Virus record (IMG/VR): IMGVR_UViG_2565956608_000007
Span: 1 to 42,407 of that record
Direction: 5' to 3' (one strand)
DNA: 42,407 nt
Source: a virus
Lineage: Duplodnaviria; Heunggongvirae; Uroviricota; Caudoviricetes
Shown: piece after piece, positions 3,763-42,407 of the stretch
Numbering within the stretch: position 1 is the first letter of the stretch
Layout: every line of letters starts with the position of its first letter
The notes under the pieces: model-generated
The model's database searches: none
The model's input: the letters and a program-made list of their open reading frames with translations, nothing else
What the model was told of the DNA's origin: nothing
Program-made: the position numbers and the translations under genes

Positions 3763-3946
3763 TGTCCTTCTCTCCTGCTGGTGGGGTGATCGTGTAACCG
3801 GCGCGTTCAGCCATCCATAAAAAAGTCTCCAGCGATGCTGTAACCTCTCCGTTCTGAACCGGGCGCGCGTGGATAACTTTCCCATTCTCGATTGTCAGCA
3901 CGATATTTACTGGTTCGTGCGTGATAATTGGTGTCTGATCACTCAT
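3734..3946 (-). CDS. hypothetical protein
   Basis: 70-aa ORF from ATG at 3944-3946 with GGAG ribosome-binding site; overlaps the upstream gene end by 8 nt. Confidence 0.45.
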   Translation of the reverse strand: MSDQTPIITHEPVNIVLTIENGKVIHARPVQNGEVTASLETFLWMAERAGYTITPPAGEKDNGPDSDTNS

Positions 3947-10289: not shown

Positions 10290-10601
10290 ATGGATCGCCT
10301 AATTAGAGAAATGTCGTACCTCTTTACCAAGCAGCGTTTTTTGGAGCTTCAGGAAGCGGCCAAAGACATCGCAATCGGTCATAGTGACTTTCCTGAGTGT
10401 TTCGGTCTTATTGCTGACGCCATCGCTGAATTTGTTGAAGACACTCCTGATGATGAGTGGCGAGAGTATGAAAAAATCCTCATGCACTACGTTGCTATGC
10501 GTACTCTGACGCTGTGGGGTAACGGGGATAAAGTTACTGATGTCCAGTGGGCACACCCTGGCTGGTTTGGCACTGCTGAAAAGGGAGAAACCATTCAATG
10601 A
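10290..10601 (+). CDS. hypothetical protein
   Basis: 103-aa ORF, stop overlaps the next start (ATGA). Confidence 0.5.
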   Translation: MDRLIREMSYLFTKQRFLELQEAAKDIAIGHSDFPECFGLIADAIAEFVEDTPDDEWREYEKILMHYVAMRTLTLWGNGDKVTDVQWAHPGWFGTAEKGETIQ

Positions 10602-11380
10602 AACTGGAAGCAGCACTCAAACATTTTAGTCCTCAGGGAATGCATATCAGCGACGATGTAAAGGGAACCTCTCCGGATCGTCTCACCGGCACTGATGTTA
10701 TGGCAGCGATTGGTACCACCAGCAGCCGTGCGCGGTTCGGCCTGGCGGCGTTCTTCGGTAAAGCGGGAATCAGCAAAACGGATGAACAGCTCGCAGTTCA
10801 GGCGCTGGCGCGATATGCGATGGATGTCGCACCGAAGAATGTTCGCAAAGCAGCTGGTGGCCAGTTCGGATGGTGTATGCAGATGTTGGCACAATTTGCC
10901 TTTGCTGATTACTCACGTTCAGCGGCTACCAGCGTGACGTGTCACAGTTGCAGTGGTACCGGGTTTATCTCCAGGAATGAGGATGTGGTTAAACATCCTG
11001 GTATTTTCGACGCCGACGGTGCTGAAGTAGTTGCCCCGAAGATTAAAAATGAGCTGGTGAATAGGGTTTGCGGAACATGCGGAGGAAAGAAAGTGATCCT
11101 TGCCCGGTGCAGGTGTGGCGGTAAAGGCGAAGTGTTGGACCGCAAAGCGACCAAAGACCGCGGCGCACCGGTTTTCAAAACGTGTGAACGTTGCTCTGGT
11201 AATGGCTTCTCTGCTATCTCCTCGGCTACAGTACACCGCGCCATTCTGAAGCGTCTCCCTGACCTCCATCAATCCTCATGGTCACGCAACTGGAAACCCT
11301 TCTATGAAATGCTGGTGGATACTCTGCGCCAGGGGGAGCGTCACGCAGCAGTGGAATTTGAGAAGGCGACAACTTATTAA
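10598..11380 (+). CDS. zinc-finger protein, putative late-gene antiterminator (Q-like)
   Basis: Four CxxCxGxG motifs; located between replication and lysis modules and followed by a promoter plus terminator pair. Confidence 0.4.
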   Translation: MKLEAALKHFSPQGMHISDDVKGTSPDRLTGTDVMAAIGTTSSRARFGLAAFFGKAGISKTDEQLAVQALARYAMDVAPKNVRKAAGGQFGWCMQMLAQFAFADYSRSAATSVTCHSCSGTGFISRNEDVVKHPGIFDADGAEVVAPKIKNELVNRVCGTCGGKKVILARCRCGGKGEVLDRKATKDRGAPVFKTCERCSGNGFSAISSATVHRAILKRLPDLHQSSWSRNWKPFYEMLVDTLRQGERHAAVEFEKATTY

Positions 11381-11442
11381 TATGATCGGAGCAAATGTCG
11401 ACACTTTTTTGCGCGTTAGTGTTGACTTTGCATAAGGTTGTC

Positions 11443-11470
11443 TTGTAAGCTTCTGATTATGGAGTATAAC
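11443..11470 (+). promoter_or_regulatory. candidate late promoter (PR'-like): -35 TTGTAA, 16-bp spacer, -10 TATAAC
   Basis: Sigma70-like hexamers read by eye directly downstream of the Q-like gene and about 25 bp upstream of a terminator. Confidence 0.3.
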
Positions 11471-11494
11471 GCCTGTAGATAATTAACCTCGAAA

Positions 11495-11519
11495 AGCCCG
11501 CCACGTTGCGGGTTTTTTT
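11495..11519 (+). terminator. Rho-independent terminator (tR'-like)
   Basis: CCCGC-loop-GCGGG hairpin followed by TTTTTTT. Confidence 0.55.
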
Positions 11520-11674
11520 GTACCCGCATTTCCCGCGCACCGCCCGCGCATTCAATACGTCGAACCAATCCATTTGAAATGAGCCTTTGAGGAAGTCAGT
11601 TAGCGCTGGCGAGCCTCGACGGGCTGGTTTCCTGTGCGGCAAAGGTTCATTTCAAAGTAAGGCATACGCATATC

Positions 11675-12160
11675 ATGAGCATCACGCAAGAACGGCTGAA
11701 AGAGGTTCTGAAGTACGACCCTTTGACTGGTTTATTTGTTTGGATCAAGCGAACAAACTCTCGGTCTACGCCAGGCAATATAGCCGGGAACGCAGATACG
11801 TACGGCTATATCCAGATAATGATCGATAAGAAATTAATCTTCGCTCATCGGTTGGCTTTTTTATACATGGATGGTGCGCTGCCGCCAGCTGATAAGTGTG
11901 TCGATCATATCAATGGCAATCCCAAAGATAACCGATGGGACAACTTACGTATCGTTACCCAGTTTGTTAATCAGCAGAACAGGCATAAGGCCAGAAAAGG
12001 TGCGAAATCTGGGCTAATTGGAGCAAACTGGTGCAAGGATCGTGGCCTGTGGCGTTCTGCGATTAGCGTCAACGGGAAACGCAAAGATCTCGGTAGTTTC
12101 CAAACTGCGGAGTTGGCTCACGAGGCTTACATGAAAGCTAAAGCTGAAATGTGTCGTTAA
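11675..12160 (+). CDS. HNH homing-type endonuclease
   Basis: DHINGNPKDNRWDNLR HNH motif. Confidence 0.7.
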   Translation: MSITQERLKEVLKYDPLTGLFVWIKRTNSRSTPGNIAGNADTYGYIQIMIDKKLIFAHRLAFLYMDGALPPADKCVDHINGNPKDNRWDNLRIVTQFVNQQNRHKARKGAKSGLIGANWCKDRGLWRSAISVNGKRKDLGSFQTAELAHEAYMKAKAEMCR

Positions 12161-12441
12161 CGCCTACACGAATAAAATAAATTAAGCCCTGCCTGTATTA
12201 GTGGGGCTATTTATTTTCTACACAACGGAAATCGCTTTGAGTATGTGACGACATCCCGGTGAGACCAGGCACACTTCCCTGGCGCGGCAAAGCGATACCC
12301 ATTGTGATGAAGCTCAGCGGCGAGCTAGGGAATAGTTTTGCGGTGAATATTCTGGATAAGTAGCCACAAGGCGCGCGTAACCCAATCGGCAGCGCACCGA
12401 TGGAAGCTGGTTCGACTCCAGCCTTCACAATCATTACTACG

Positions 12442-12465
12442 GGCTACCTTCGGGTGGCCTTTTTT
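12442..12465 (+). terminator. Rho-independent terminator with UUCG tetraloop
   Basis: GGCTACC-TTCG-GGTGGCC followed by TTTTTT. Confidence 0.55.
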
Positions 12466-12682
12466 GTTTCCCCTCCTTCTGAGAGAACTCACGGCAATGA
12501 AGTATTGACCGGCGGAATGATTTCGGCGTAATTTGTTTGTGTGGTGAATCCTTTCTAAGCGAAAGGGCGTTCCAGTCAACTGCTATCTGCAGGTATGCGC
12601 GCGGCTTTGCTGACTGGGGTAGAGTCACCGGGAGGCACCCGGCACCATGACAACAACAATACAAGTTTCAAATTCCTTGAGA

Positions 12683-12710
12683 GCCTGCCATAAAACGCAG
12701 GCCTTTTTTT
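12683..12710 (+). terminator. Rho-independent terminator
   Basis: GCCTGC-loop-GCAGGC followed by TTTTTTT. Confidence 0.55.
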
Positions 12711-12860
12711 ATGGTTTTGCAAACTGCTGCTACGCTTTGAGTTGTGGGAAGTAACTGAATGCCCGGTGGTTCTCCTGGACCGATAGTGAATCAGCCGATA
12801 CAGCTTCACCTCTGAGCATAAGTCTTACTCACACCTACCTTACAAATAGTCAACTCATTA

Positions 12861-12887
12861 GCCCGCCATCAACAGCGGGCTTTTATT
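12861..12887 (+). terminator. Rho-independent terminator
   Basis: GCCCGC-loop-GCGGGC followed by TTTTATT. Confidence 0.5.
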
Positions 12888-12939
12888 ATTTCCCCTCAAA
12901 CTTACTGAGAGGATTCATAGCAATTACAGAGGGGGCGTA

Positions 12940-13329
12940 ATGTCCGATCCATTAACCGGCACTGGTGCAGTTCTCGGCGGAGGCCTGCTGGGTTCAGTCC
13001 TGTATGGTGTCTTTACTCATACAGATTTCGGCGTGGTGTTTGGAGCGTTTGGTGGTGCGGTGTTTTACGTCGCGACAGCTGCAAACCTTACGCGTGCTCG
13101 CCTGGCTGCATATTTCCTTACATCATTCATTGTTGGAGTGCTTGGCGCCGGGTTTGTTGGTTCATGGCTAAATGCTGCCTCGAGTTATGAAAAACCACTG
13201 GATGCACTCGGTGCAGTGATTTTGTCTGCACTGTGTATAAAAATCCTAACTTTTCTTAATAACCAGGACCTGAACACCCTGTTCGGTTTTTTCTCACGGT
13301 TACGCGGAGGAGGGGGAAATGGTAATTGA
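12940..13329 (+). CDS. holin
   Basis: 129-aa hydrophobic protein with multiple predicted transmembrane segments at the head of the lysis cassette; GAGGGGG ribosome-binding site. Confidence 0.65.
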   Translation: MSDPLTGTGAVLGGGLLGSVLYGVFTHTDFGVVFGAFGGAVFYVATAANLTRARLAAYFLTSFIVGVLGAGFVGSWLNAASSYEKPLDALGAVILSALCIKILTFLNNQDLNTLFGFFSRLRGGGGNGN

Positions 13330-13597
13330 CCCGTCAGCTGTCTTTAACGCGTTTATCTGCTCGGTGATCGTCGTCGTTCTGATGTTCTACCAGCGCCATG
13401 GTGCCCGGCACCGTCCTTTTATCTCAATCCTGGCGTATATAACCATCCTGGTTTACGCAGTAATCCCATGGCAATTCATCTTCGGCCTCTATCGTGACTC
13501 CAGTTGGCTGGTGGTGATGTCGAACCTCCTGATATGCGCAGCTGTTATGAAGGTCCGGGGAAATCTGGCACGTCTGGTTGATCTTCTGAGGCACTAA
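13319..13597 (+). CDS. second holin-like membrane protein
   Basis: 92-aa hydrophobic protein between holin and endolysin. Confidence 0.5.
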   Translation: MVIDPSAVFNAFICSVIVVVLMFYQRHGARHRPFISILAYITILVYAVIPWQFIFGLYRDSSWLVVMSNLLICAAVMKVRGNLARLVDLLRH

Positions 13598-41347: not shown

Positions 41348-41710
41348 TGGTGGAGCTGGCGGGAGTTGAACCCGCGTCCGAAATTCCTACATCCTCGGTA
41401 CTACATGCTTAGTCAGTCTTTACATTCGCTTGCCAGCTGCGGACGGACACGCCACTAACAAACTAGCCTGATTAAGTTTTAACGCTTCAACCCCAGGCAG
41501 GGCTTCCACGCGATCTCTTTTGGGTTTGACCTCTCTTGATCCCCGTCCTAAGAGCGGAGGCTAGGGAGAGAGGGCTCTAAGCAGGTTATTAAGCTGCTAA
41601 AGCGTAGTTTTCGTCGTTTGCGACTATTTTTTGCGGCTTTTTACGAGGCCAACCGCCCCTCGGCATGCACCTTGGGTTTCGCAAATCCCGTCGAATCCAG
41701 AATCAGCCCC
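41348..41710 (-). ncRNA. ssrA: tmRNA (transfer-messenger RNA, SsrA)
   Basis: Minus-strand sequence begins GGGGCTGATTCTGGATTCGACGGG and ends ...GGTTCAACTCCCGCCAGCTCCACCA; 363 nt; directly downstream of smpB. Confidence 0.95.
41355..41384. repeat. attR core inside ssrA (GCTGGCGGGAGTTGAACCCGCGTCCGAAAT)
   Basis: 29/30 identical to 1663-1692. Confidence 0.65.
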
Positions 41711-41924: not shown

Positions 41925-42407
41925 TTAACGGTGGGCATTTTTCATGATACGCGCTTTATCCACCTGCCATTCGCGTTCTTTGATATCTGAACGTTTATCG
42001 TGCTGTTTCTTACCTTTGGCGACGCCGATTTTCACTTTGCACCAGGCATTTTTCCAGTACAGGGAGAGCGCCACTACGGTATAGCCTTCTCGATTGACGC
42101 GACCGTACAATGAGTCCAGTTCGCGCTGGTTGAGAAGTAACTTGCGGGTACGGGTAGGATCGCACACCACATGCGTGGAGGCCACAGCCATTGGCGTGAT
42201 GTTAGCGCCAAACAGAAATGCCTCTCCGTCGCGCAGAAGGACATAGCTGTCGCTGATATTGGCTTTTCCTGCGCGCAGGGATTTAACCTCCCAGCCTTGC
42301 AGGGCAAGTCCCGCTTCGAACTCTTCTTCGATAAAGTATTCGTGACGGGCGCGCTTGTTAAGCGCGATGGTCGCTGAACCAGGTTTATGTGCTTTTTTCT
42401 TCGTCAT
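41925..42407 (-). CDS. smpB: SsrA-binding protein SmpB, complete
   Basis: 160-aa translation [58 protein letters not shown]... recognised as enterobacterial SmpB. Confidence 0.95.

Follow-up and report, generated by a model that had tools for sequence, protein, structure and literature searches.

A five-armed, non-decoding RNA derived from a phage tRNA gene in the gap between Q and the lysis genes of a tailed-phage sequence

What fills the gap between the HNH endonuclease gene and the lysis genes of the tailed-phage sequence IMGVR_UViG_2565956608_000007? In a preliminary description of this 42,407-nucleotide (nt) stretch, referred to here as the window, positions 12161 to 12939 appeared as a noncoding stretch of 780 bp with three terminators and a tRNA-like 3′ half, for which a tRNA remnant, a tRNA-like regulatory RNA, or a relic attachment site was considered. 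Our analysis shows that the tRNA-like sequence is not a half. A complete element of 131 nt, located at positions 12301 to 12431, very probably encodes a structured and selectively maintained RNA that was derived from a phage tRNA gene. The element and its parts are as follows.

12301 to 12431, plus strand: whole element, a five-arm tRNA-derived RNA of 131 nt, defined by covariance model R1 and comparative structure.
12301 to 12309 (ATTGTGATG) with 12423 to 12431 (CTTCACAAT), plus strand: 9-bp terminal (acceptor) stem.
12312 to 12325, plus strand: D-arm GCTC-AGCGGC-GAGC, with GG in the loop; 99% paired and hardly varying.
12328 to 12383, plus strand: extra arm of 56 nt, inserted after the D-arm and before the anticodon-arm homologue; its outer stem is GGG/CCC, and its internal loop consists of AAUA (5′ side) and GCGCGUAA (3′ side).
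12335 to 12343 with 12364 to 12372, plus strand: 9-bp inner stem of the extra arm, followed by a 20-nt apical loop.
12351 to 12356, plus strand: self-complementary UCUGGA in the apical loop of the extra arm, a putative site of dimerization by kissing loops.
12385 to 12401, plus strand: anticodon-arm homologue ATCGG-CAGCGCA-CCGAT, with a non-decoding loop (A33, C37).
12406 to 12422, plus strand: T-arm GCTGG-TTCGACT-CCAGC, with compensatory change in three of its five pairs.

The hairpin ATCGG-CAGCGCA-CCGAT and the T-arm had been recognized in the preliminary description, and both were recovered at these positions; the 7-nt strand that had been called acceptor-like is CTTCACA (12423 to 12429). 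It had also been stated that no matching 5′ acceptor strand or D-arm lies at tRNA distance. This is literally true, but both parts are present; the intervening 56-nt arm has shifted them upstream by about 57 nt relative to their place in a tRNA. In unrelated phage contexts, the borders of homology coincide with the ends of the terminal stem, i.e., with two complementary strands. Several features of canonical tRNAs were found, namely, a T-loop of the type TTCRANY closed by a G-C pair, a D-loop containing GG, and an acceptor stem in which the 5′ and 3′ ends pair. The element departs from canonical tRNAs in having five arms and 131 nt instead of a four-arm cloverleaf of 70 to 95 nt, in having an anticodon loop without U33 and without a purine at position 37, and in not being recognized by tRNA finders. 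The terminal stem is followed by CAT in the window copy and by ACT in the copy of Salmonella phage Skate (not by CCA), and in many relatives an 8-bp stem is followed by C-CCA or a 9-bp stem by A-CCA (e.g., positions 2629 to 2635 of L006 and 4129 to 4136 of L003).

BLAST searches identified positions 12302 to 12433 as a separate module that occurs, in full-length matches, at 73 to 92% identity in 90 phage records, and a 136-nt query matched 175 of 5,426 complete Escherichia coli genomes. The matched copies were always unannotated or covered by spurious open reading frames (ORFs). Copies were gathered by scanning contigs of viral, genomic, and metagenomic origin for sequence patterns, which yielded 66 distinct sequences from phages and prophages of Salmonella, Escherichia, Klebsiella, and Enterobacter, none of them annotated. 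Lambda-like, P22-like, and Skate-like phages are among the carriers, as is a prophage of Klebsiella pneumoniae ATCC 13883, and an identical copy with matching flanks was found in Enterobacter intestinihominis. The same architecture thus recurs in temperate and virulent phages from several genera, with at least four different genomic surroundings.

The structure was tested on an alignment (A3) of 33 nonredundant copies. There, 94.7% of the cells were paired, compared to 30 to 45% when the partners were slid, and compensatory changes were present in 18 of the 39 pairs; none of 500 column shuffles reached the observed covariation. RNAalifold, given no structure, returned the same five helices (terminal stem, D-arm, long arm, ATCGG/CCGAT arm, and T-arm). 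Within the extra arm, two pairs of the outer stem switch from GC to CG or AU on both sides, and six pairs of the inner stem show compensatory change. Metagenomic copies added compensatory variants in the terminal stem. The ATCGG/CCGAT helix was invariant in the first set because the search pattern demanded it; among metagenomic copies found without that demand, the variants ATTGG/CCAAT, ATCAG/CTGAT, and ATAGG/CCTAT were present. The loop CAGCGCA is nearly invariant (55 of 66 copies).

A covariance model, R1, was built from relatives of the window element. The window copy scored 147.2 bits (E = 7e-30, model positions 1 to 131), the other members that were searched scored 127 to 158 bits, and the next-best matches were real tRNAs and tmRNA, at 25 bits or less. 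A score of 147 bits lies within the family range; therefore, the window copy is an ordinary member and not a decayed one. Scans with Rfam 15 gave no family match for the element, nor for better-paired relatives. The tmRNA model matched only the 17-nt T-arm (7.8 bits), which does not make the element a tmRNA, and for the Y RNA families no match was listed at E values of up to 10; the ends of the element form an acceptor stem, so it does not belong to the Y RNAs either. In the literature that we covered, incompletely, on tRNA-like RNAs in late or N leaders of lambdoid and P22-like phages, on phage tRNA-like decoys, and on T4 species 1 RNA, the element is not described. It appears to represent a previously undescribed family of phage tRNA-derived, probably stable RNAs that has remained unseen by tRNA finders, Rfam, and genome annotation. 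The generic tools fail because of the inserted arm: ARAGORN and Rfam list no tRNA here, and the family-built model finds the element at 147 bits. The absence of covariance-model hits, which had been suggested as a refutation of the tRNA-like reading, would thus have wrongly dismissed it.

Where does the tRNA resemblance come from? The best match of R1 outside the family was tRNA-Asn(GUU) of phage HK639, which occupies the equivalent slot after Q. In the alignment to this tRNA, ATCGG-CAGCGCA-CCGAT falls on the anticodon arm, so that the label "anticodon-arm-like" holds, and the long arm appears as a single insertion after the D-arm. When the long arm was deleted in silico, ARAGORN at default settings called 10 of 12 members as tRNAs of 72 to 73 nt, nominally Arg(GCG). 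The window copy failed to be called as a tRNA even with the extra arm removed. Decoding tRNAs carry U33 and a purine at position 37. With A33 and C37 in the loop CAGCGCA, the element cannot decode. It is a tRNA-derived, non-decoding RNA with five arms, and of the explanations offered in the preliminary description, the tRNA-like RNA is the one that is supported, as a selectively maintained whole and not as a 3′ half.

The HK639 tRNA-Asn(GUU) gene lies at positions 2588 to 2662 of that genome, just after Q and the first terminator, and is unannotated in the GenBank record. It is followed, at about 2668 to 2745, by a degenerate tRNA-Gly-like sequence that has a good T-arm and no matching 5′ acceptor strand. 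Phage L likewise carries tRNAs in this slot (PMC8022706), so that the remark that lambdoid phages often carry tRNAs at this position was borne out.

The successful calls after deletion of the arm might be taken to indicate a decoding tRNA with an intron-like insert, which would be excised to give tRNA-Arg(GCG) or another tRNA; ARAGORN also reports tRNAs in its intron mode. Those intron-mode calls, obtained with low thresholds, contradict each other (Thr and Ala), however, and no Rfam intron family matches. The insert is located at position 26/27, outside the anticodon loop, and A33 and C37 are unlike functional tRNAs. We know of no bacterial enzyme that would excise such an arm, and we regard this explanation as highly improbable.

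The element could also be a decaying tRNA pseudogene that was disrupted by an insertion and is now neutral. This would fit its being overlooked by ARAGORN and Rfam, the U.U and C.A mismatches of the window copy, and the missing tRNA call after arm removal, and a degenerate tRNA-Gly-like relic is indeed found in this slot, beside the HK639 tRNA-Asn gene. Neutral decay leaves unexplained why compensatory changes occur in all six helices, the inserted arm included, over 66 variants, why one architecture is kept across temperate and virulent phages, several genera, and at least four contexts, and why the window copy scores in the middle of the R1 range. A pseudogene is therefore very unlikely, and the same observations contradict the proposed tRNA remnant.

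In phage attachment (att) sites, the 3′ half of a tRNA is often duplicated, as exemplified by phage L (PMC8022706). The relic attachment site considered in the preliminary description, or a secondary one, would accordingly carry the 3′ portion of a tRNA gene of the host. Here, both halves of the tRNA-like fold and both acceptor strands are present, and the element is found in virulent phages as well. Among the matches listed for the 175 of 5,426 E. coli genomes, none lay under a tRNA annotation; Enterobacter chromosomes were not searched directly. At the far end of the window, moreover, the prophage adjoins a tmRNA gene. We consider the attachment-site origin scarcely credible, less so even than an intron. 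The tmRNA gene is complete (41348 to 41710, minus strand, 296 bits), and an ORF at 41925 to 42407 (minus strand) runs off the window end, in a position next to the tmRNA gene where smpB would be expected. The window looks like a nearly whole prophage adjoining ssrA.

In the inserted arm, the hexamer at the alignment column of UCUGGA was self-complementary in all 66 distinct copies, while control frames shifted by 1 to 8 nt were self-complementary in 0 to 6 of 66. Seven hexamer types were found (ACUAGU, UCUAGA, UCGCGA, UCUGGA, GCUAGC, ACCGGU, and UCCGGA). Since the window version UCUGGA is symmetric only via G.U pairs, a constraint at the level of RNA is favored over one at the level of DNA. 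A six-base palindrome cannot pair with itself within one hairpin; therefore, loop-loop pairing of two molecules is the simplest reading. Such pairing between two RNA molecules is what occurs at the HIV-1 dimerization site (DIS), a 6-nt self-complementary apical-loop sequence whose identity may vary while its symmetry is kept; in the present family, the symmetry of the hexamer is retained in 66 of 66 copies. These data suggest, as a well-founded hypothesis, that the element may dimerize via kissing loops.

The flanks of the palindrome in the apical loop (12344 to 12350 and 12357 to 12363) are also conserved, with UGAA on the 5′ side and (A/U)GUA(G/A) on the 3′ side. They resemble a loop E or bulged-G motif, which would leave the hexamer in a smaller loop. 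A possible tertiary pairing of GCGC in the anticodon-like loop with GCGC in the internal loop was considered; the few variants (CAUCGCA and UGCGCG) do not covary cleanly.

How might such an RNA be made? The genes that frame this question are Q (10598 to 11380; PF03589, E = 4e-53), the HNH endonuclease gene (11675 to 12160; HNH_3, E = 5e-14), and the holin gene (12940 to 13329; PF16931), with the HNH gene bounding the interval on the 5′ side and the holin gene on the 3′ side. Two further features are needed here.

11422 to 11522, plus strand: putative late promoter pR′ and first terminator tR′, directly 3′ of the Q gene.
12221 to 12304, plus strand: long hairpin H0, in which CACAACGGAAATCGCTTTG (12221 to 12239) pairs with CAAAGCGATACCCATTG (12288 to 12304) around a 48-nt variable insert.

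The pR′ assignment is putative and was made from promoter hexamers, with a −35-like TTGACT read at positions 11422 to 11427. The predicted tR′ consists of a hairpin and a U-run (11494 to 11520; −11.4 kcal/mol, z = −2.6). In an alignment with phage Fraca, the pR′/tR′ block is nearly identical up to about position 11520 and divergent afterwards, and homology restarts exactly at a terminator, T2, at position 12441. Positions 11521 to 12440 therefore represent a variable, mosaic slot of the late leader, which in the window contains the HNH gene, a terminator (T1), H0, and the tRNA-like RNA. In Fraca, the same slot (about 3522 to 3810 of L184) is filled by about 290 nt of unrelated sequence with a small ORF. 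In phage CharmingMan, the HNH gene is present and the element is not; thus, the two are separate modules. A promoter scan of positions 11500 to 13500 reported no promoter-like site, and reading of the sequence between T1 and the element gave no convincing hexamers, so that a promoter belonging to the tRNA-like element itself was dismissed. Since no promoter was detectable there, the element would be transcribed only by Q-modified read-through.

Hairpin H0 directly precedes the element and is joined to it, its last 4 nt being the first 4 nt of the tRNA-like stem, a position that covaries with both partners. The helix itself covaries (GGTAAGAGCA/TGCTCTTATC, GGAGAGAGTA/TACTCTCTTC, and GGTAATGGCA/TGCCATTACC; CAAC/GTTG versus CAAT/ATTG), and in every relative of the GTTG or ATTG type, the duplex energy lies between −16 and −33 kcal/mol. 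The window copy of H0, at −24.4 kcal/mol and z = −1.75, is weak when taken alone. The upstream helix strand TGCTCTTAT was considered as a nut-like boxA and rejected: its sequence is not conserved, its changes are those of a covarying helix, and no boxA is present in the window version, GCGATACCC. In six relatives (L081, L093, and L078; also L002, L032, and L036), a small extra hairpin lies about 20 to 45 nt 5′ of H0. Its stems covary (GCCC/GGGC versus CCCTGA/TCAGGG), and GGTGTGA(TTAATAA) occurs in the loop or nearby. In another relative, L024, the variable insert of H0 holds a perfect T-arm, GCAGA-GTTCGATTC-TCTGC, which suggests that remnants of other tRNAs are embedded in that insert.

Phages 611R6 and PhiR5_2 carry the element after Q and tR′, as in the window. 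In a lambda-like subfamily, the terminal stem is lengthened to about 20 bp and lies between nutL and the N start codon. There (positions 3900 to 4160 of L003 and 7720 to 8110 of L009), the basal stem beneath the element, GCTTTGGGGTGTG/CACACCACCAAAGC, is exactly that of lambda (430 to 700 of L131, minus strand), and the element takes the place of the approximately 93-nt upper hairpin of the lambda N leader. That upper part of the lambda leader is unrelated and gave no R1 match. The lambda N-leader hairpin, an RNase III site, thus shares its basal stem with the L003 and L009 copies, whereas the window copy is in a late leader instead. In virulent phages of the Skate type, the element forms part of a small tRNA operon encoded on the other strand from the structural genes, where there is no message to process; in Salmonella phage Skate itself, promoter-like hexamers precede the element, which is followed by tRNA-Ile and a single terminator. 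Further copies have genuine tRNAs as neighbors, at distances of up to about 130 nt. Together, the CCA or ACCA ends of some members, the tRNA neighbors, the Skate tRNA operon, and the flanking long helices suggest excision by the tRNA-processing machinery, possibly with RNase III.

The same contexts provide the case for the main rival, a purely cis-acting processing element, i.e., an RNase P or RNase III cleavage signal that separates leader from message and whose excised RNA has no job of its own. The element is found in leaders of antiterminated operons (after Q and tR′ in the window, 611R6, and PhiR5_2, and from nutL to N in lambda-like phages), it replaces the top of a hairpin at the same place and on the same basal stem in the lambda-like phages, and the flanking long helices would suit RNase III. 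Such a signal, however, needs just the acceptor/T-arm stack, leaving the nearly invariant loop, the conserved internal loop, the 56-nt arm, and the ever-symmetric hexamer unexplained, and it would find no message to process in the Skate-type context. We therefore judge a purely cis-acting role to be improbable, if less so than a pseudogene.

We favor, with a probability of roughly 0.6 for the account as a whole, a stable, processed, non-decoding tRNA mimic that would be made in lytic growth, would be able to dimerize, and, more speculatively, would act in trans on a tRNA-binding factor. Late in lytic growth, Q-modified RNA polymerase would read through tR′ and T1 and transcribe the element. 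The RNA would then be excised like a tRNA, with RNase P acting on the 5′ side, trimming on the 3′ side, and possibly RNase III cleaving the adjoining long helix. The product, a stable species of about 130 nt, would accumulate and might pair with a second copy via the apical hexamer. Q-dependent synthesis with tRNA-type processing is plausible, at about even odds. In trans, the mimic might serve as a decoy or adaptor for a tRNA-binding host or defense factor; this role is speculative, and either function is a guess that we would not expect to prove right. The broader proposal would be an undescribed phage RNA family of five-armed mimics that dimerize through a palindrome, are freed from antiterminated leaders or tRNA operons, and act in trans during lytic growth, e.g., by tying up or diverting a host enzyme that binds tRNA or a defense nuclease that targets it. 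We put this forward tentatively and with some doubt.

Several points weigh against the proposed trans-acting mimic. Everything beyond the structure (expression, processing, and dimerization) is what we infer, and the location in leaders is equally compatible with a purely cis role. The consensus promoter scan may have missed a promoter of the element's own. The window copy contains mismatches, U.U in the terminal stem and C.A at 12341/12366 in the inner stem, and single-sequence folding misses its fold (z = −0.4); the structure therefore rests on comparative data. The family is tight (all copies at 127 bits or more and at least about 73% identity), and thus the covariation goes back to a limited number of independent events. 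With regard to dimerization, the outer pair of the hexamer could instead close a tetraloop, so that only the central dinucleotide (four types, all self-complementary) argues specifically for an intermolecular contact.

What else does the gap contain? The tRNA-like element is one of several RNA modules arranged between Q and the lysis genes, in the order T1, H0 with the tRNA-like RNA, T2, an STnc100-family small RNA (sRNA) with T3, and T4. Those not yet listed are the following.

12185 to 12218, plus strand: T1, a hairpin (12185 to 12208) with a U-rich tail, which ends the HNH gene; −12.4 kcal/mol, z = −2.1.
12441 to 12466, plus strand: T2, where homology to Fraca restarts; −13.8 kcal/mol, z = −4.3.
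12505 to 12534, plus strand: promoter-like site for the STnc100-like sRNA (TTGACC, 18 nt, TAATTT), read from the sequence.
12512 to 12714, plus strand: STnc100-family sRNA; Rfam RF02076, 55.7 bits against a gathering threshold of 47, E = 2e-9.
12683 to 12702 with a U-run, plus strand: T3, terminator of the STnc100-family sRNA.
12860 to 12890, plus strand: T4, just 5′ of the holin gene; −13.4 kcal/mol, z = −5.1.

Instead of the three terminators counted in the preliminary description, the plus strand of the interval contains four intrinsic-terminator hairpins (12185 to 12208, 12441 to 12460, 12683 to 12702, and 12860 to 12881). In all four predicted terminators, a U-run on the transcribed strand comes after the GC-rich hairpin; the fold energies are −12.4 to −13.8 kcal/mol, and the z-scores are −2.1 to −5.1. 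A terminator scan found nine terminator-like sites in 2 kb, with 2.2 expected, and the hairpin homologous to T4 carries a terminator annotation in HK639. Q-modified polymerase must cross this late leader to get to the lysis genes.

The match to RF02076 covers model positions 1 to 206 and lies above the gathering threshold, which places positions 12512 to 12714 in the STnc100 family. This family has been described as a prophage sRNA adjoining lysis and stx genes, and the window copy sits where the family is reported, in the late region of a prophage. It is a separate part of the interval, unrelated to the tRNA-like element. HK639 is 85% identical from about position 12504 on and shares the STnc100 part and the last terminator. 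The site at positions 12505 to 12534, which the strict promoter scan did not report, may be the promoter of this sRNA; if so, the STnc100-like sRNA, unlike the tRNA-like RNA, could be made without Q. The gap is thus noncoding, as had been described, but nearly 200 nt of it belong to a known sRNA family. The earlier view that it holds no convincing ORF also stands: the longest ORFs (75 to 84 amino acids, minus strand) had no PHROG match better than E = 0.02, and coding potential was rejected for want of family support. For annotation, this means that the gap between Q and the lysis genes in such prophages should be seen as a stack of RNA genes separated by terminators and not as empty spacer.

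Phage tRNA-like RNAs, such as the species 1 and 2 RNAs of T4, have long been known and remain unexplained, and the present family offers a clear, testable architecture. Its carriers include systems amenable to experiment, such as the K. pneumoniae ATCC 13883 prophage, E. coli phages, and Salmonella phage Skate. If the RNA acts as a mimic or decoy, it would tie in with work on antiphage defenses that target tRNA. If it is only a processing signal, it would show how phages put the tRNA fold to new use in cleaving their leader RNAs, the classic lambda N-leader hairpin being one such place.

Among known systems, species 1 RNA of T4 (rnaC), a phage-encoded, non-decoding stable RNA, is the closest analogue. 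To our knowledge, its function has never been established. It is 139 nt long, lies in the T4 tRNA cluster, and shares with the element a canonical T-arm (CCGGG-TTCGAAT-CCCGG), a terminal stem formed from both ends, a long additional hairpin, and another arm ahead of the T-arm. Unlike the element, it has a predicted fold without a D-arm, and it comes from a different phage group; a self-complementary apical hexamer was not seen in it, although no search aimed at one was made. R1 scored rnaC at 13.3 bits (E = 0.37), so that only the general architecture is alike and there is no sequence homology; homology to rnaC or rnaD was rejected, as R1 gave no significant match. The YrlA Y RNAs, which occur in phages too, do not decode either; their D-like and T-like arms imitate the elbow of a tRNA. 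Their ends lie in a Ro-binding stem that replaces the anticodon stem, whereas the ends of the element form the acceptor stem, and the inner stem of the element, being free to covary, does not represent a conserved Ro site. Small RNAs released from longer transcripts by RNase P include mascRNA (from the 3′ ends of MALAT1/NEAT1), C4 of P1 and P7, and CI of P4. For the element, whose tRNA-shaped fold lies inside a longer transcript, they may serve only as an analogy for the proposed RNase P release; mascRNA is eukaryotic, C4 and CI are much smaller antisense RNAs, and none has a sequence or Rfam relation to the element. The late tRNAs of lambdoid and P22-like phages (tRNA-Asn of HK639; tRNA-Asn and tRNA-Leu of phage L; PMC8022706) are found in this slot as well, just 3′ of Q, pR′, and the first terminator, and the HK639 tRNA-Asn has unusual details in common with the family, namely, AA after the acceptor stem, the D-loop AGCGG, and the anticodon stem xUCGG/CCGAx. 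In contrast to these 75-nt, decoding tRNAs, the element carries a 56-nt arm at position 26/27, a non-decoding loop, and a terminal stem of 9 bp.

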